Assembly (NCBI GenBank): GCA_963714085.1
Contig: OY970229.1
Span: 1,312,001 to 1,376,000, forward strand
DNA length: 64,000 nt
Source: an uncultured Candidatus Micrarchaeota archaeon
GTDB lineage: Archaea > Micrarchaeota > Micrarchaeia > Anstonellales > Bilamarchaeaceae
Reading direction: 5' to 3'
The position numbers and the translations under genes were made by a program. This document shows, in pieces, positions 13,650 to 24,553 of the stretch (within the stretch, counting starts at the first letter, position 1; each line of letters begins with the position of its first letter). The notes beneath the pieces were generated by a model, which searched no databases, had not been told where the DNA came from, and was given only the letters and a program-made list of their open reading frames with translations.

Positions 13650-13668
13650 GGGATTCTACCTCCGGAAA

Positions 13669-13728
13669 GTAGAAGCTATCAGCCCGCTGAGGGCGGTTTG
13701 GTTCGATGCCTGGTGAGCTTCATCGCCA
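13669..13728 (-). ncRNA. Fluoride riboswitch (crcB motif)-like aptamer
   Basis: UGGCGAUGAAGCUCACC...AAACCGCCCUCAGCGGGCUGAUAGCUUCUAC: GAUG motif, GAAGCU/AGCUUC pseudoknot, GCUGAU..CUAC end. Confidence 0.8.
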
Positions 13729-13796
13729 TGTCGCATTTACGGGTCAATTCTTAAAAAGCCTTTGATTCGGCTGCCGTACACGCGCCTCGACACGGG

Positions 13797-14960
13797 TCAT
13801 CTCCTCAATACTATCAGCGGGACGTACATCTCCTCGTCGCTAACGCCGCCATGGACGCCGACGGGATTCTTCATCTTCTCCCCGCAGACGAAATCGTCCA
13901 TCACGTAATTCCCCTTCATTATCAGGACGTAATCCCCGATCCTGCTGTTTAATTTTTCATTGGCGGAGAACAATCCGAAATAGCCTTTTTTGACGAGGCT
14001 TTCGGATCTATGCAAACTGCATTTGTTTTTGAACTCGGTTCTCACATATTTCTCGAATTGCCTGGCTTTGGAAGGGTGCACATAGCAATAGGCGGCACGG
14101 TGTTCGCCGGACAGGGGCATGGAGAGACACTCCTCCAATTTCGGGTGGTCCCTGAGGAATATCCTCTTCGACGGTTCGATATTGATCAGCCCATGGTCCG
14201 CTGTGATCACTATCGTTGTGCCCGGCTCCAGGGAGCGGTAAAGCGAGCGGAACCTCCTGTCCAGTTGTTTCAGGTGCCTCTCGACCCTTTTGTCGGATGT
14301 GCCGTATTTGTGGGCCAGGGAATCGATATCCGGCCAATAGGCATAGACGAATTTCCTCCCTTTCCTGGCAAGGGCCTTTTTCAGTTTATTGAAGAATCCC
14401 GTGAGATTCCGGTATCCGAGCCGTTTCGCCTTTCCGGAGTGGGCCACGCTATAAGCCGAATCCGCGATGCCTTCCCTCGTGACGATGTAAGATCTGGTTT
14501 TTATCCTCTCGAATATGGATTTTTGGTCGAAAATGACCTTTGGATTGATCTTCTGCCTGGTGAACGAGGCAGTCCTGTCAACACCCGCATAACGGGGAGT
14601 GAACGTGAGGATGGTCGATATCGTCCCCATCTCCTTCAGGTATACGAACCAGCCGGTGATCGCGTGCTGCTGCGGGGCGAGGCCGGTATTGAATGTGGTG
14701 ACGCAGGCCGCGGTGGTGGAAGGGAATACGGAGGTGATCCTTCCTTCCAATCTGTCGCTGAATATCGAGCCTTTGCCGTGTTTCCGCAAATACTCGTAGC
14801 CGAGGCCGTCCAGGACTACCAAGACGATGTTCTTGGAGCCTTTAAGCTCAGCCGGAGGAAGGAGCCTCAGAGGCGCATACTGCGACTTGGAGCCGTAGGA
14901 CTCCAACAGCGACGCCATCAGGTTGACGATGCTTCCGCCTTTGTAATCAGGAAGGACCAT
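13797..14960 (-). CDS. Alkaline phosphatase superfamily (type I phosphodiesterase/NPP) protein
   Basis: VVLDGLG, SVFPSTT, DSLAH, ITADHG, GVHGG. Confidence 0.9.
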   Translation of the reverse strand: MVLPDYKGGSIVNLMASLLESYGSKSQYAPLRLLPPAELKGSKNIVLVVLDGLGYEYLRKHGKGSIFSDRLEGRITSVFPSTTAACVTTFNTGLAPQQHAITGWFVYLKEMGTISTILTFTPRYAGVDRTASFTRQKINPKVIFDQKSIFERIKTRSYIVTREGIADSAYSVAHSGKAKRLGYRNLTGFFNKLKKALARKGRKFVYAYWPDIDSLAHKYGTSDKRVERHLKQLDRRFRSLYRSLEPGTTIVITADHGLINIEPSKRIFLRDHPKLEECLSMPLSGEHRAAYCYVHPSKARQFEKYVRTEFKNKCSLHRSESLVKKGYFGLFSANEKLNSRIGDYVLIMKGNYVMDDFVCGEKMKNPVGVHGGVSDEEMYVPLIVLRR

Positions 14961-15012
14961 GGTTCCGATTATCCATTATTCATTATAAATGATTGTCACA
15001 TCAATACCCATC

Positions 15013-16395
15013 ATGGCGAGGAGCTTCGGATCCACGGCGCAAATAACGGTCCCTACCGACCCCTTCAGCCGCATCATCGGGCAGGACAACGCGGCGAACA
15101 TGGCACGCGTGGCCGCGCTCCAGAGGCGCCATCTCCTTCTCGTCGGCCCTCCGGGCACCGGCAAATCGCTCATCGCGCGCGCCATGGCGTCCGTGCTCCC
15201 GTCACCGAAGCAGGAGATCTCCGTACTGGACAATCCGGAAAGGCCCGAGCGGCCGGTGGTGGAGATAAGGGACGGGGATAAGATCGCCAGGGATTCCGGC
15301 GCCGAAAGATCCGGGAAGGAAATCCCCGCGAAGGACGTCCCGGTCTTCCTGGCCGAGCGCTTGGGCATCCGCTGCAGGAGGTGCGGCATGCTCCTGGACG
15401 AGCGGGGCGCGCCATGCTCCATATGCGGCGCATATCCTGCCCGCGAGGCTGTCGGCACAAGGTTCGCGACCGCGCAAAAGGGCGCTTCAGGCAGGCAGGA
15501 GACCATCTTCTACTCAATGGATTCGCGCGGCAGCGTCGTCATGCTCACCGAGGCCGAAGTGAAGACGGAGGAGGAGCAGAGGAAGAAGAGCAGGAGGAAG
15601 GTGCTGCTCCCTCTCAAGCGCAATCCGTTCGTCCAAGCCAGCGGGGCGAGCGAGACCGAGCTCCTGGGAGACGTGAGCCACGATCCGTACGGAGGGCACA
15701 GGGAATTGGGCACGCCGCCGTTCATGCGCGTGATCCCGGGCGCCGTGCACGAGGCGCACGAGGGCGTGCTCTTCATAGACGAGCTTTCGACTCTTGGCGG
15801 CCTCCAGCGCCATCTTCTCACCGCGATGCAGGACAAATCGTTCCCCATAAGCGGCAGGAACGCGACATCGTCCGGTGCCTCGGTGCGTGTGGACGCGGTG
15901 CCCTGCGACTTCATACTCGTGGGCGCGGTGAACGTGAACGACCTCCAGCCGATACTCCCGGCATTGCGCTCCAGGATAAACGGGGACGGCTACGAGGTGC
16001 TCATGAACGCGGCCATGGCGGACACGCCGGTCAACCGCATGAAGCTCGCCCAGTTCGTGGCCCAGGAGATCGTCCGCGACGGGAGGATCCCCCATGCCGG
16101 CTACGATGCTTTCGATTCCATCGCGATGCACGCGAGGAGGATGGCGAAGGAGATAGACGGCGAGGCGGACTCGTTGACGCTGCGCCTGCGCGCGATAAGC
16201 GGGGTCGTCAAGCTCGCGGGCGATCTGGCCGCGGTGAACAGGAACGAATTGATAACGAAAGAGGACGTGCTCGCTGCGATACGGAACGCCCGCTCCATAG
16301 AGGAGAAGATGCAGGAAAAGTACGGGAGCGCGTGGAGGGCCGGCGCCTCGGACGTCCAATCGAAGCAGGCACCAGCTGGAAGGGAAACTAGGTAA
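15013..16395 (+). CDS. LonB-like AAA+ ATPase without a protease domain
   Basis: IIGQD, GPPGTGKS, ELLGDVSHDPY, GAVHEAHEGVLFIDE, VPCDF; CxxC..CxxC insert; ORF ends before any Lon protease domain. Confidence 0.85.
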   Translation: MARSFGSTAQITVPTDPFSRIIGQDNAANMARVAALQRRHLLLVGPPGTGKSLIARAMASVLPSPKQEISVLDNPERPERPVVEIRDGDKIARDSGAERSGKEIPAKDVPVFLAERLGIRCRRCGMLLDERGAPCSICGAYPAREAVGTRFATAQKGASGRQETIFYSMDSRGSVVMLTEAEVKTEEEQRKKSRRKVLLPLKRNPFVQASGASETELLGDVSHDPYGGHRELGTPPFMRVIPGAVHEAHEGVLFIDELSTLGGLQRHLLTAMQDKSFPISGRNATSSGASVRVDAVPCDFILVGAVNVNDLQPILPALRSRINGDGYEVLMNAAMADTPVNRMKLAQFVAQEIVRDGRIPHAGYDAFDSIAMHARRMAKEIDGEADSLTLRLRAISGVVKLAGDLAAVNRNELITKEDVLAAIRNARSIEEKMQEKYGSAWRAGASDVQSKQAPAGRETR

Positions 16396-16399
16396 CGAA

Positions 16400-17365
16400 T
16401 CAGAGCGGTATGCCGGCTATGATCTCTTTTATCGCGCTGAGCGGCAGCCCGAAAAGATGCTCGTAGGTCCGCTCGAACTCTTCGTTGGCATGGCGCAGTA
16501 GAGCTTCCTTGTGAACCGCATCCGCCGGGTCGCATTCTGCCTCTGTGCCGCAAGCCTTAGCGAGATAACGGTCTGTCTCAGTCGGCGTTTCCCTGTATGA
16601 CATGCCGCGCATTATCTCGTCCTCTCTCATCCCATACCTCCCCTTCAGCCGATCGATGAAGCGGAAGGAGGCTTTGAGATGGGGCTCTCCAGTGGGGTTC
16701 CTGGCTCTGGACCTGCGATTGGTTATCATTGCCCTCAGAAGTATCATCGGGTCGTCGAAATGCATGAGCTCCAGCAGCGTTGAGAGGTACTCGCCATTAG
16801 AAGCGCCTATGGGGATAGGGAGCCCGGTCATGCGCCAGATGCTCAGATGCACCCCGTGCTCGCATTCATGGGCGGCATCGCTTTCCAGGCCGGTGAAAAC
16901 GAATGCCTGATGGAGCTCAGAGAGGTAAAGGCCGCCGGGGAGCCCGGGCGCTTTGCTGAACGGCTCCGGGACCCTCGAAACCAGCATGTCACCTATCATC
17001 TCGGTCGGACACGAGCATACGATGAACCCCAAAGGCTTGATGCCAGACATCTCCTGCGGCACTGCCTGCAAACCCGAGATCAAGGCAGACCGGTTGAAGT
17101 CGCGGATCCGGTCAAGGAAATCGCTGTATCTAAACGGCGCAAATCCGGATTCCGTCCTAAAAACCGTGCCTTCCTTGAAACCAACCGGCTTTACCGGAAC
17201 GGACCAATGGACGTCCTGGCCGCAGAGATGCTGCTTCAGGAACGGGAGGTGGGTCGGGCGGCCTTCCTTCGAATCTTTCTCCACGCTCCTAAGAATTCTT
17301 TCCCTCAGCCGTAGGGCTCTCGATTCGGCGCTGAGGCCCAGCGAGTACGCGGTGAGGGAGTGCAT
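16400..17365 (-). CDS. Hypothetical protein with HExxH motif
   Basis: 321-aa ORF with AHECEHGVH; AT-rich upstream promoter. Confidence 0.6.
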   Translation of the reverse strand: MHSLTAYSLGLSAESRALRLRERILRSVEKDSKEGRPTHLPFLKQHLCGQDVHWSVPVKPVGFKEGTVFRTESGFAPFRYSDFLDRIRDFNRSALISGLQAVPQEMSGIKPLGFIVCSCPTEMIGDMLVSRVPEPFSKAPGLPGGLYLSELHQAFVFTGLESDAAHECEHGVHLSIWRMTGLPIPIGASNGEYLSTLLELMHFDDPMILLRAMITNRRSRARNPTGEPHLKASFRFIDRLKGRYGMREDEIMRGMSYRETPTETDRYLAKACGTEAECDPADAVHKEALLRHANEEFERTYEHLFGLPLSAIKEIIAGIPL

Positions 17366-17478
17366 ATGTTAATTGTGTTGGCAAATGATTAAAAAGGGTA
17401 ACCAAAGCGCTCTCTGAAGCTGGCTAGGGGAAGTGTAAAAGAAAAATAAAGAATCCCCTGGTCAGAGGATCCTTTTTA

Positions 17479-17564
17479 TGGGGGGATAACAAGGTGGAAC
17501 GGACCCTATAATGAGAGAGGCGGGAGCGGGCCCGTCCATGCCTTGCCATATCTTTCGATTAGTG
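17479..17564 (-). ncRNA. Putative structured RNA, copy A
   Basis: Long hairpin whose G-U pairs work only on the minus strand; loop GCUCCCGCCUCUCU. Confidence 0.6.
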
Positions 17565-17590
17565 TGATTGCACCAGCCCCGTTTTTTGAG

Positions 17591-17676
17591 TGGGAGGATA
17601 ACAAGGTAGAACGGGCCTAAAAACAGAGAGGCGGGAGCGGCCCGTTCTTTGCCTTGCCAATTTTTCGAGACTAGTG
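17591..17676 (-). ncRNA. Putative structured RNA, copy B
   Basis: Repeat of copy A at a 112-nt period; stem preserved despite substitutions. Confidence 0.6.
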
Positions 17677-17691
17677 CAATTTACGCACGAA

Positions 17692-18120
17692 TCACATCGG
17701 GAAGAAGAAGACCTTCTTTCCGACCTGCTTTTTGCCGAGCAGGTTCAGCTCGTATAACCGATTCAGTCTTGCGCAGGCGGCGTTCTTTCCCTTGTAGCTG
17801 AAATGCTGCCGCACGTCCTCGGCGCTTATCCTCCCCTTCTCCCGGACGAATTCCATGATTTTCTCGTCCACTTCGGGCAGGAGGGGCTCGCCTCCGGGCG
17901 CTGCGGCAGTGCCTGTTGGGATGTTCTCGAGTTTTGCGAGTATGTTCTTCAGTATCCGGTTGGTGTTCTCCCTCTCCTCGAGGAGCTTGTACATAAGCTC
18001 TCCGAGGATGACCGGGTCGCTGAATTTCTGCATGTTGTTCTCGAGGTCATTCCTGATTTCGCTGCGCAACGGGCTGCGTTCGGTGTTAAGTTTATATATG
18101 TTAACACTGTTATCTTCCAT
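17692..18120 (-). CDS. Coiled-coil plus C-terminal winged-helix DNA-binding protein
   Basis: VDEKIMEFVREKGRISAEDVRQHF..NAACARLNRLYELNLLGK; GGTGA SD before ATG 18120. Confidence 0.75.
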   Translation of the reverse strand: MEDNSVNIYKLNTERSPLRSEIRNDLENNMQKFSDPVILGELMYKLLEERENTNRILKNILAKLENIPTGTAAAPGGEPLLPEVDEKIMEFVREKGRISAEDVRQHFSYKGKNAACARLNRLYELNLLGKKQVGKKVFFFPM

Positions 18121-18175
18121 CGAAGTCACCCCGTTGTTGAGTGGTTTCCTGACAACGTTGCGATAAGATCACGCA

Positions 18176-18199
18176 ACTATCATGATAGTATCATGATAG
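18176..18199. promoter_or_regulatory. Palindromic operator candidate ACTATCATGATAGTATCATGATAG
   Basis: Two TATCATGATA palindromes next to a TTTATAAA box in a divergent promoter. Confidence 0.6.
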
Positions 18200-18238
18200 G
18201 GTTTATAAAGCTAACGTTTCTCCCATGAATCTATTTGG

Positions 18239-18799
18239 ATGCTAGGTGGCGATTTGAAATCAATGAAAGACATGGCTTTCCAGGTGCTCGACGCATTCAG
18301 GGCCAGGAACCAGAAGAGCCTCAGGAAGATAAACGACGTCGTGCTCAAAGAGGCGAGCCTGGATTTCACCAGCACCGCGTACGAGATGGCCGTGCTCTCC
18401 TACGTTTTATCCAAGATAGTCTCAAAGCCGCGATTCCTCGGCAAGGATGCGGCCCCGCGCATCAGGAAGATCGAGGACGAGATCAGGGGCCTGGTGCAGA
18501 TACTGGGCACGAACCAGGACACCGCGCCGTACTTCAAGCGCATCGCGACCGCGATCGGGCAGCTGGAGAAGCTGGACCCGCGGTTCGTGCGCGACCTGGT
18601 CTCCAAGGGCAGGCTCAAGACCGCGGCCACCATGTACGCCCAGGGCATATCGCTGGGGCTGGCTTCGGAGATGACCGGCATCTCGAAGCAGGACATACTG
18701 AGCTACGCCGGAAGGACCATGATGTTCGACAGGATAAAGGAGGAGATGCCCGTGGCGGAACGGCTCAAGGCCGCGCGCAGGGCGCTGGGCGGTGCGTGA
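18239..18799 (+). CDS. Conserved archaeal protein with C-terminal HTH (UPF0175-like)
   Basis: GISLGLASEMTGISKQDILSY; coupled to the PIN gene. Confidence 0.65.
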   Translation: MLGGDLKSMKDMAFQVLDAFRARNQKSLRKINDVVLKEASLDFTSTAYEMAVLSYVLSKIVSKPRFLGKDAAPRIRKIEDEIRGLVQILGTNQDTAPYFKRIATAIGQLEKLDPRFVRDLVSKGRLKTAATMYAQGISLGLASEMTGISKQDILSYAGRTMMFDRIKEEMPVAERLKAARRALGGA

Positions 18800-19483
18800 A
18801 TGGAATCCAAGGACATACTCTGCGACTCCGGCTCGTTCATATCCCTGACCACCGCGTGCCTGGACCCCATAATCTATTTCCTTTCGGAGAAGTTCAAGGT
18901 CCGGTTCGTGATACCGACCATGGTCCGCAAGGAGACCGTGGACTATCCGCTGGAAAAGGGCCTCAAGCAGTACGCGTTCTCGGCCATCAAGATAAAGGAG
19001 GCATTGAAAGACGGAGTGATAAACGCGGTGGACATGGACGTCTCGTCGCAGACCCAGCGCATACTGCGCATGGCCAACGGGATCTTCTACGTCCAGGGCA
19101 AGCCGCTGCAGCTCATACAGCACGGGGAGGCCGAGATGCTCGCCCTGGCGAAGGCTTTGGACATAAGGGACATACTGATAGACGAGCGCACCACCAGGAT
19201 GCTCATAGAGGCGCCCTTCAGCATGAAGGACCATCTGGCCGAGGAGTTCGGCGTGAACGTCATGCTTGACCGGAAGGCGCTCACGGAGTTCGGCGCCATC
19301 ACCAAGGGCATGACCGCGCTCCGCTCGAGCGAGCTGGTGATGGTCGCGTACGAGGACGGGTACTTCGACCACTTCGACGAGCTCAAGCGCGAGGCGCTGG
19401 AGGCCGCATTGTACAAGGTCCGATTCTCCGGCTGCTCCATCAGGTTCGACGAGATCGAGGAATACGTGAAGATGGTCAGATAG
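18800..19483 (+). CDS. PIN-domain protein
   Basis: ILCDSGSFISL, HGEAEMLALA, ILIDERTTR. Confidence 0.75.
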   Translation: MESKDILCDSGSFISLTTACLDPIIYFLSEKFKVRFVIPTMVRKETVDYPLEKGLKQYAFSAIKIKEALKDGVINAVDMDVSSQTQRILRMANGIFYVQGKPLQLIQHGEAEMLALAKALDIRDILIDERTTRMLIEAPFSMKDHLAEEFGVNVMLDRKALTEFGAITKGMTALRSSELVMVAYEDGYFDHFDELKREALEAALYKVRFSGCSIRFDEIEEYVKMVR

Positions 19484-24318: not shown

Positions 24319-24423
24319 GGCCACGGTAGTGTAACGGTAGCATAGGAGCCTGTGGTGTCGTCTTGGCTGAGGCCAGGGCGTCATGGCAAGCTCTTGAACC
24401 GAGTTCGAGTCTCGGCCGTGGCC
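24319..24423 (+). tRNA. tRNA-His(GUG) with 33-nt intron (24356-24388) and encoded G-1
   Basis: Cloverleaf GCCACGG/CCGTGGC, C discriminator, BHB-type intron at 37/38. Confidence 0.93.
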
Positions 24424-24553
24424 CTATCCTACTTTGCTAGAAGCCAGGATCCTGCGAATCCTCGTGCAGGGCCATCCCGATGGGCCAGGCGATCCAGTCC
24501 GGGCGCTTCGGCCGCCTGGATGGCAAAGAGAGGATGCGATCCATCCACCTGAA

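Follow-up and report, generated by a model that had tools for sequence, protein, structure and literature searches.

Tandem structured RNA units behind a winged helix-turn-helix gene of Micrarchaeota: an undescribed RNA family with a candidate role in anti-Shine-Dalgarno-like base pairing

The DNA considered here (the window) is a stretch of 64,000 nt from an uncultured Candidatus Micrarchaeota archaeon (assembly GCA_963714085.1, contig OY970229.1, positions 1,312,001 to 1,376,000). Behind one of its genes, which encodes a winged helix-turn-helix (wHTH) protein, are two tandem units that are copies of an undescribed, widely conserved structured RNA family. The units would form a structured module in the 3' untranslated region (UTR) of the wHTH mRNA, or an RNA cut from it. 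Each is predicted to display two single-stranded pyrimidine-rich sequences, a loop (A)CCUCCCGCCUCUC and a 3' tail GUUAUCCUCCCA, both with the CCUCC core of an anti-Shine-Dalgarno (anti-SD) sequence. The module may act through RNA-RNA base pairing with GGGAGG-bearing RNAs, of which the best candidate partner is RNA-X, a candidate small RNA (sRNA) from a distant locus of the genome. The explanation favored here, although tentatively and with somewhat less than even confidence, is a multivalent, anti-SD-like pairing RNA that is co-transcribed with the gene and is a sponge or partner of RNA-X. Four points are inferred from sequence: that the units are co-transcribed with the gene, that RNA-X is transcribed, that the two pair in the cell, and which way the control runs. 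The genome that holds the window (G000) is a single contig of 1.57 Mb that is 87.65% complete with respect to marker genes. Its family is denoted f1, with f6 and f9 being other families of the same order; the f1 lineage is called Micrarchaeota from the names on protein homologs.

An initial annotation of the window had described two tandem units that fold on the minus strand, and this was confirmed by repeat analysis and by folding against shuffled sequences. Two families of direct repeats (44 nt at 82% identity and 27 nt at 89%), with spacings of 111 and 112 nt, cover positions 17479-17548 and 17591-17659. Each unit is composed of an outer stem, an internal loop of 3 nt on one side and 1-2 nt on the other, a 10-bp inner stem and a 21-nt loop beginning with GCUCCCGCCUCUCU; the tail that follows the outer stem reads UUAUCC(U/C)CCCA in both. 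The conservation of this loop prefix and tail, also part of the annotation, is evident from the alignment of the units. On the minus strand, unit 1 folds with -28.4 kcal/mol (z = -2.76, 2 of 200 shuffles equal or better) and unit 2 with -28.0 kcal/mol (z = -3.81, 0 of 200). On the plus strand, unit 1 is indistinguishable from shuffles (z = -0.53) and unit 2 is better than them (z = -3.34). The strand is also indicated by the G-U pairs, two in the inner stem of unit 1 and two in each outer stem, which become A-C mismatches on the plus strand. Thus, the earlier statement that the stems pair fully, with G-U pairs valid on one strand, holds; its companion, that the stems differ, has to be reduced to a small difference. 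When aligned by homology, the inner stems show two one-sided changes (G-U for A-U and G-U for G-C) and a register shift of one base and, as a result, the two units alone are weak evidence for covariation. The 301-nt 3' region as a whole (17400-17700) folds better than 100 of 100 shuffles (z = -5.44). In its minimum free energy (MFE) fold, unit 2 is enclosed by a predicted long-range helix whose arms are the inverted repeat I8 (15 nt at 80%).

A scan of the whole window with Rfam 15 at gathering scores identified 5S rRNA, tRNA and a fluoride riboswitch only, leaving the units unmatched. The best match in a permissive scan of 17300-17800 was sR24, with 18 bits against the 36 needed (E = 0.14), and a further locus (L068) had no match in Rfam either. 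A genome of the same genus carries both units at 94% identity. In three further genomes, homologs located through short BLAST matches have inner stems that are wholly different in sequence with pairing kept. A covariance model, R1, was built from 7 sequences (alignment A2) and used with a match threshold of E ≤ 0.01. It matched 57 of 99 f1 genomes; the largest genus accounts for 37 of these, out of its 40 genomes. Matched genomes have 1-4 copies each, arranged in tandem. A second covariance model, R2, applied to an order-wide genome sample, matched 34 of 73 f1 genomes and 1 of 77 genomes from other families. Within G000 the element is present at one place only.

Covariation was evaluated over 61 matches from 30 sources (58 distinct rows), in an alignment that was fitted to the model and is hence not model-independent. 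Paired cells amount to 90.5%, compared to 37-47% when the partners are slid. Double changes were found at 17 of the 20 pairs, including all 12 pairs of the inner helix, and none of 500 column shuffles reached any of these measures. An independent RNAalifold analysis of 7 sequences found compensatory changes in 10 of 20 pairs. The loop CCUCCCGCCUCUC is retained even in decayed copies that lack the tail. With the negative Rfam result, the spread over f1, the strong compensatory covariation and the tight gene linkage described below, the unnamed noncoding RNA family suggested by the initial annotation is supported. The tandem direct repeats with inverted-repeat cores, together with related sequence at a second locus, could also be viewed as a feature of the DNA (sites bound by protein, or a small mobile repeat) without any RNA. 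This is highly improbable given that compensatory changes preserve pairing, that the G-U pairs are valid on one strand, and that the element occupies one locus per genome, fixed behind one gene and not dispersed.

The wHTH gene is directly upstream of the units and on the same strand in 29 of 30 unit loci, and the thirtieth locus begins at a contig end. This is the linkage that the initial annotation had proposed to look for with a covariance model. In many relatives, the unit begins approximately 10-25 nt past the wHTH stop codon. At the level of the order, wHTH 3' flanks were surveyed from 20 genomes of genera and families without a model match. A CCUCCCAC-type motif was present within approximately 200 nt of the wHTH stop codon in 18 of the 20 flanks, the two exceptions both being from f9. 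In most such flanks, (U)GCAAGGCGACC precedes the motif and the motif is in the loop of a long hairpin. In f6, a small hairpin that ends in GCAAG is followed by GCGACC and by a long G/C-rich hairpin carrying the loop UUAUUCACCUCCCACACCC; the f6 loop reads UUCACCUCCCAC. By our reading, the wobble pairs in two f6 hairpins are valid on the wHTH strand only. As judged by sequence, other families carry a related RNA at the equivalent place behind the wHTH gene.

The exposed motifs resemble the 3' end of 16S rRNA, which reads GAUCACCUCCA (...GGAUAGAUCACCUCCA) in G000 and three of four other genomes and GAUCACCUCCU (...CACCUCCU) in the fourth. Since the 16S 3' ends have these sequences, the f6 loop shares the 8-mer UCACCUCC with the anti-SD end. 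In G000, ACCUCC/CUCCC in the loop and CCUCC in the tail are common to the 16S 3' end. The wHTH genes are themselves preceded by Shine-Dalgarno (SD) sequences of the GGUGA/GGAGG type, and serve as examples of the usage in this organism. An antisense relationship to 16S rRNA was considered and rejected: the plus strand UAACAAGGUAG resembles 16S GUAACAAGGUAUCC, and the RNA strand would pair over approximately 8 nt only. No rRNA site emerged from genome duplex scans with the unit segments.

The case for a partner RNA begins with a second locus. The pattern GCAAGGCGA-N(2-150)-CCTCCCA has matches in 97 of 151 genomes of the order, compared to 3 matches in total for a reversed control. Away from the wHTH gene, the exact 24-mer GCAAGGCGACCAGTTATCCTCCCA is present once per genome in 38 of 74 f1 genomes, and variants with 1-2 base changes are present in 8 more (46 of 74). 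By our count from the pattern list over the 151 genomes, the 24-mer locus occurs in none of the genomes of other families. The 24-mer corresponds to the unit 5' flank GGCAAGGC and the tail GUUAUCCUCCCA joined without the hairpin, and in G000 it is located at C1:1086604-1086627, far from the window.

Forty copies of the second locus were compared (L148-L167, L172-L191). On the strand opposite the 24-mer, a TATA-like box in canonical orientation is present no more than 90 nt upstream in 31 of the 40 loci, at a distance of 47-74 nt (mostly 50-58) from UGGGAGG; on the other strand, such a box was observed in 5 of 40 loci at scattered distances. A covarying GC hairpin on the opposite strand is followed directly by a mean of 7.2 T per 12-nt window, versus 4.3 past the C-rich motif on the other strand. 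Three transitions in two lineages produce, in our reading, G-U pairs on the proposed strand and A-C on the other. Because of the TATA box at fixed spacing and the hairpin with its U-tract, these features indicate that the second locus is an sRNA gene of approximately 85 nt on the strand opposite the 24-mer, termed RNA-X. Its candidate transcript contains an invariant 25-nt single strand, GCAUGGGAGGAUAACUGGUCGCCUU, and the segment GCAUGGGAGGAUAACUGGUCGCCUUGCC is positioned between a 5' hairpin and a terminator hairpin. RNA-X has no match in Rfam. An rtcA-like gene is next on the RNA-X strand in 7 of 20 loci.

Since RNA-X is placed on the strand opposite the 24-mer, it would be complementary to the units. 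On the proposed strand, the complementarity is perfect to the unit tail over 12 nt and to the 5' flank UGGCAAGGC over 9 nt. Cofolding with RNA-X yields a gain of -20.8 kcal/mol for unit 2 and -16.0 kcal/mol for unit 1, compared to -2.5 ± 1.9 for shuffled RNA-X with 0 of 200 shuffles being equal or better, which is not an independent test since the complementarity was known beforehand. The predicted complex is a three-way junction in which the inner hairpin is kept. In a genome-wide duplex scan with the unit 2 tail, the RNA-X locus was the best match besides the units' own antisense strands at -28.9 kcal/mol (background of 2276 seeded windows: mean -15.5, sd 4.2); with the next match at -27.7, the margin is small. 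Pairing with RNA-X would open the outer stem to produce the three-way junction and, with 1-4 tandem units bearing two C-rich sites each, the module could serve as a multivalent sponge or decoy for RNA-X. Alternatively, control may run in the other direction with the wHTH mRNA as the target of RNA-X.

The loop provides some contrast to the tail. In the window, the loop complement AGAGAGGCGGGAGC is present only as the antisense of the units. Elsewhere in G000, no copy with 0 or 1 mismatches was found, save for a single 1-mismatch site inside a coding region. In five further genomes, all 0-mismatch matches are the RNA loci themselves and 1-mismatch matches are about as many as in the reversed control. 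Thus, targets complementary to the loop, which the initial annotation proposed to search for, were not found outside the RNA loci in these six genomes. Its description of an anti-SD-like base-pairing RNA remains plausible with respect to the 16S-like exposed motifs and a locus perfectly complementary to the tail and 5' flank; the loop lacks such a counterpart. The best non-self duplex of the unit 1 loop in G000 covers the start-codon region GGUGUAAUGAUGGGAGAGGCAGGGAGU of a 1078-aa open reading frame (ORF) at C1:512247 on the minus strand, with -34.7 kcal/mol against a background mean of -18.5 (sd 3.8, 2404 seeded windows); this result is for G000 alone. For the 28-nt conserved segment, the best duplex in G000 has -39.5 kcal/mol; it is inside a region coding for a C-terminal membrane segment and was set aside as a chance match.

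From these results, the units might be viewed as a general anti-SD mimic, with the CCUCC loop and tail masking the ribosome binding sites of many mRNAs. The ACCUCC/CCUCCC sequences of loop and tail, the UCACCUCC that the f6 loop shares with the 16S 3' end, the GGUGA/GGAGG-type SD sequences used by the organism and the duplex over the start of the 1078-aa ORF would all be consistent with it. However, there is no conserved extended target, the loop complement has no perfect copy outside the RNA loci in any of the six genomes, and the single mRNA match is known from G000 alone. Conservation also extends far past the SD core, into GUUAUCCUCCCA and GGCAAGGC, which is needless for a generic mask. 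A general mimic is therefore considered unlikely.

A third RNA, termed G-RNA, was traced via the complement of the f6 loop and is conserved and intergenic. In this candidate sRNA, a TATA box is followed by a small 5' hairpin that covaries and by (A)GAGUGGGAGG or GCGUGGGAGGUGAG; next comes a UUCG-capped hairpin whose 3' side (CCUC) can cover GGGAGG. BLAST and nhmmer identified G-RNA in 29 of 42 f6 genomes and 46 of 99 f1 genomes; a loose sequence pattern for G-RNA and RNA-X had been abandoned in their favor since its matches were mostly due to chance. In one f6 genus, many genomes have G-RNA upstream of a uvrC-like gene; the RNA has no match in Rfam. Pairing would be possible between the G-RNA sequence GUGGGAGG(UGA) and the C-rich motifs in the wHTH-linked RNA. 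A covariation of the f1 and f6 flanks that was noted by eye was unsupported by a cognate versus non-cognate test in 28 genomes, which gave no signal of co-evolution.

Evidence for transcription was sought in RNA libraries. A single run contained any of the stretch (9% of sampled words) and yielded one metatranscriptome contig of 213 nt over 17556-17766. The contig comes from a relative (90-95% identical) and bridges the end of the wHTH coding region and unit 2; cover elsewhere is absent and uninformative. The contig is a weak hint that the units are co-transcribed with the wHTH gene.

Several observations weigh against the proposed pairing with RNA-X. The 213-nt contig, of low depth and from a relative, is the sole support from RNA libraries, and it may stem from DNA carry-over. 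The loop CCUCCCGCCUCUC is complementary to RNA-X only in GGGAGG and has no perfect complement elsewhere in the six genomes. RNAalifold gives no separation of the strands at the second locus (-42.4 versus -40.9), so that the proposed strand of RNA-X depends on promoter and terminator signals and on the three transitions that favor it, in two lineages. Transcription from the other strand would make RNA-X a paralogue of the units rather than a partner. As the tail and RNA-X are both nearly invariant, no intermolecular covariation can be counted. For G-RNA, the energy of the cognate duplex ranks anywhere from 1 to 28 of 28 against non-cognate partners, and mid-range on average, in the 28 genomes that have both RNAs. 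Finally, RNA-X cannot explain the ancestral function because families other than f1 have the wHTH-linked RNA and no 24-mer locus. A broader proposal, in which a mimic of the 16S 3' end in the 3' UTR of a core regulator antagonizes GGGAGG-seed sRNAs (RNA-X, G-RNA) or titrates factors of the 16S 3' end throughout the order, is decidedly doubtful.

The protein encoded upstream of the units is widespread. It has 382 homologs, few of which are named, either as members of the BlaI/MecI/CopY family or as 'predicted HTH transcriptional regulator'; the named homologs stem from Micrarchaeota, Bilamarchaeaceae and 'ainarchaeum' records. Of the 151 genomes of the order, 134 encode it, nearly always as a single copy, as do 58 of 62 high-quality genomes. 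The only Pfam match is a sub-threshold one to Penicillinase_R. In a structure model (predicted local distance difference test, pLDDT = 82), the N-terminal part is a long pair of helices and the C-terminal part a winged helix. A Foldseek search with this model identified DNA binders of the AspA, ArsR/SmtB, MarR and MecI types. Scans against domain libraries detected no RNA-binding domain. The promoter of the gene contains a TATA box and a palindrome (Table 1). By eye, most of 46 listed f1 genes share a TATA box, a palindrome of the ATCATGAT-N3-ATCATGA type, a 5'-UTR hairpin and a GGUGA SD sequence; in f6 loci this layout is less clear or different. Because of the winged-helix fold matches and the palindrome in its own promoter, the wHTH protein is most simply an autoregulated DNA-binding regulator with the palindrome as its putative operator.

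These properties bear on two other roles for the RNA. The initial annotation had also suggested that the units are a ligand or antitoxin of the wHTH protein, which found no support: the gene is a single-copy core gene, the fold is that of a DNA-binding protein with a palindrome in its own promoter, and the arrangement differs from that of type III toxin-antitoxin (TA) systems. The units may alternatively be a protein-binding element, where the loop and tail are bound by the wHTH protein for autoregulation, or by a 16S 3'-end factor with a KH or PIN domain, and tandem units titrate this protein. Archaea have KH- and PIN-domain factors that bind the 16S 3' end, and protein binding would suit a loop that is nearly invariant without a complementary RNA, the strict linkage to one gene across the order and the motifs resembling the 16S 3' end. 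With a palindromic operator in its promoter and no RNA-binding domain detected, however, the wHTH protein resembles a normal DNA-binding regulator, and this explanation is considered unlikely.

On the 3' side, the module is closed by a terminator-like hairpin, and the same hairpin with its U-run also follows the unit at loci G035 and G024 and at several others. The units could be a purely cis-acting 3'-end element, with hairpins that only stabilize or terminate the wHTH transcript; in line with this, they are flanked by the stop codon and by the terminator-like hairpin with its T-run, and the region is strongly structured. Stability and termination do not, however, need invariant loops and tails beside freely changing stems, and 1-4 tandem copies and an exact 24-mer at a second locus would be left unexplained. 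This makes a cis-only role very unlikely.

Table 1. Coordinates of the RNA units, the associated gene and the candidate sRNAs. Positions are those of the window unless preceded by G000:C1.
Feature	Coordinates	Strand	Details
Unit 2	17586..17662	-	Nearer the wHTH stop codon; R1 match 80.5 bits, E 1.8e-18, also from fold and repeats; outer stem GGCAAGG/CCUUGUU; inner stem AGAACGGGCC/GGCCCGUUCU; 21-nt loop GCUCCCGCCUCUCUGUUUUUA; tail AUCCUCCCACUC
Unit 1	17474..17551	-	Distal; R1 match 87.1 bits, E 3.4e-20, also from fold; outer stem GGCAAGG/CCUUGUU; inner stem GGACGGGCCC/GGGUCCGUUC; loop GCUCCCGCCUCUCUCAUUAUA; tail AUCCCCCCAUAA
Long-range helix (predicted)	17567..17680	-	Arms 17567-17581 and 17666-17680
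Terminator-like hairpin	17438..17475	-	AAAGGAUCCUCUGACCAGGGGAUUCUUU, conserved (U)GACCA loop, then AUUUUUCUUU; from terminator scan
wHTH gene	17692..18120	-	142-aa ORF; N-terminal coiled coil, C-terminal winged helix-turn-helix; units form its 3' flank
wHTH promoter region	18130..18210	-	TATA box 18203-18210; palindrome CTATCATGATA/TATCATGATAG at 18177-18199 (inverted repeat I9)
wHTH 5'-UTR hairpin	18157-18177	-	GUUGCGUGAUCUUAUCGCAAC; GGGGUGA SD sequence in the same 5' UTR
RNA-X (candidate sRNA, about 85 nt)	G000:C1 about 1086652 to 1086566	-	TATA box, 5' hairpin, terminator hairpin and U-tract
G-RNA (candidate sRNA)	G000:C1:1566457-1566377	-	nhmmer E 9.4e-12; loci L225-L249, L251-L280

The units were compared with known classes of structured RNA. 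Archaeal C/D box sRNAs are approximately 50-70 nt long with a 5' C box (RUGAUGA), a 3' D box (CUGA), a kink-turn (K-turn) and a guide of 10-12 nt upstream of D/D'. The G000 units begin with AUAUGG/AAUUGG and have no CUGA after the tail and, with these defining boxes missing, the class was rejected; UGAUGG and CUCUGA are present in some relatives and are not conserved across f1. H/ACA sRNAs are marked by a large pseudouridylation pocket, an upper stem containing a K-turn or K-loop, and ACA 3' of the lower stem. Here, the internal loop is 3+1 or 3+2 nt and the lower stem is followed by AUCCUCCCA instead of ACA, so this class was rejected as well, as was a K-turn reading since the G000 units contain no GA/AG K-turn. 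Type III TA systems have short tandem RNA repeats directly upstream of an endoribonuclease toxin gene, with a terminator between them. A ToxI-like antitoxin was rejected because the repeats are downstream of the gene, the product has a regulator fold and the gene is a core gene; PADLOC was not searched. Sponge RNAs of the Csr/Rsm type present many GGA motifs in hairpin loops to bind CsrA/RsmA, and were rejected since the loops are C/U-rich (GCUCCCGCCUCUCU) with no GGA.

Two classes have features in common with the units. Like C-rich RNAs that mask SD sequences, the units have ACCUCC/CUCCC in the loop and CCUCCC in the tail, both SD-complementary and unpaired in the consensus fold. RsaE/RoxS of Firmicutes carry C-rich unpaired motifs in loops and linkers that are complementary to G-rich ribosome binding sites, and the units similarly display several unpaired C-rich motifs. 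In contrast to these stand-alone bacterial sRNA genes, the units are archaeal and form a tandem module that flanks a regulator gene on its 3' side; no Rfam match links the two, and the unit motif extends well beyond the C-run. The second class is that of bacterial sponge and 3'-UTR-derived RNAs, in which an RNA from a transcript end has several sites complementary to the seed of an sRNA. The units would likewise provide multiple sites on one 3'-flank RNA for a separately encoded candidate, RNA-X, with 12 + 9 nt of perfect complementarity if RNA-X is read on the TATA/terminator strand. Unlike the bacterial sponges, their predicted pairing is bipartite across a hairpin with a three-way junction, and is known from sequence alone. 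Ribosomal-protein mRNAs provide examples of rRNA mimicry, where copies of an rRNA site in the 5' leader bind the encoded protein. The 8 nt that the f6 loop UUCACCUCCCAC shares with the 16S 3' end are a point of likeness; the location in a 3' flank and an encoded protein that looks like a DNA-binding regulator set the units apart.

Among archaea, sRNA41 of Methanosarcina mazei is a C-rich sRNA proposed to mask SD sequences, encoded by an independent gene and with known mRNA targets, as given in a review (PMC5867862). The units differ in belonging to another phylum and in having no conserved mRNA target found, their best partner being another small RNA. According to the same review (PMC5867862), an intergenic sRNA of Saccharolobus (Sulfolobus) solfataricus pairs with the 3' UTR of its target mRNA, which would be an archaeal precedent for RNA-X acting on the 3' UTR of the wHTH mRNA; it concerns another lineage and other RNAs and, as described there, has neither a repeated structured module nor likeness to an anti-SD sequence. 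In the full-text literature, with subscription-only papers outside the scope, nothing was found on small or regulatory RNAs of Micrarchaeota or other DPANN archaea. No archaeal sponge RNA was found either, in a search that was not aimed at the word 'sponge', and the word is missing from the review (PMC5867862).

Three conserved small-RNA loci absent from Rfam are thus described: the units, RNA-X and G-RNA. One of them is fixed behind a core regulator gene across the order and displays an anti-SD-like sequence. Micrarchaeota and other DPANN archaea have very small genomes with few recognizable regulators and are not yet genetically tractable. If the proposed pairing is true, it would give access to the study of post-transcriptional control in these organisms. 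To our knowledge, sponge-type RNA-RNA antagonism has no known case in archaea, and the pairing would be the first. Were the order-wide circuit also true, the expression of a regulator would be coupled to translation initiation or ribosome maturation in reduced DPANN cells. The covariance models and alignments that were made (R1, R2 and A3) can be used to annotate the family in metagenomes.

The surroundings of the module are largely conserved. Two unnamed conserved genes (18239-19483, plus strand) that encode proteins of 186 aa and 227 aa are divergent from the wHTH gene, and their position is kept in most of the 30 loci; by eye, the 227-aa protein looks PIN-like. On the other side, at 14989-16395 (plus strand), is a gene for a LonB-like AAA+ protein of 468 aa with a Cys-rich insert. 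Its lon_rel match spans the ATPase part only, and no protease domain was matched in domain scans. Most relatives have this gene downstream of the RNA, with both on one strand. The shared gene order is thus the 227-aa and 186-aa genes pointing away from the wHTH gene, then the wHTH gene, the RNA and the LonB-like gene, which is inverted in the genus of G000. A 321-aa ORF (16400-17365, minus strand), with no Pfam or NCBIfam match, is situated between the RNA module and the convergent LonB-like gene; it is an insertion or deletion difference, since G001, a genome of the same genus, lacks it here and has the units directly adjoining the LonB-like gene.

Two further RNA features of the window are separate from the module. 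The fluoride riboswitch (RF01734), which scored 40.1 bits with a gathering threshold of 34, is at 13663-13736 on the minus strand, a short way downstream of where a PglZ/phosphodiesterase-like gene (13797-14960) ends. At 24331-24424 (plus strand), ARAGORN predicts a tRNA-Pro (UGG) of 94 nt, long enough for an intron, that is unlisted in the Rfam gathering scan.

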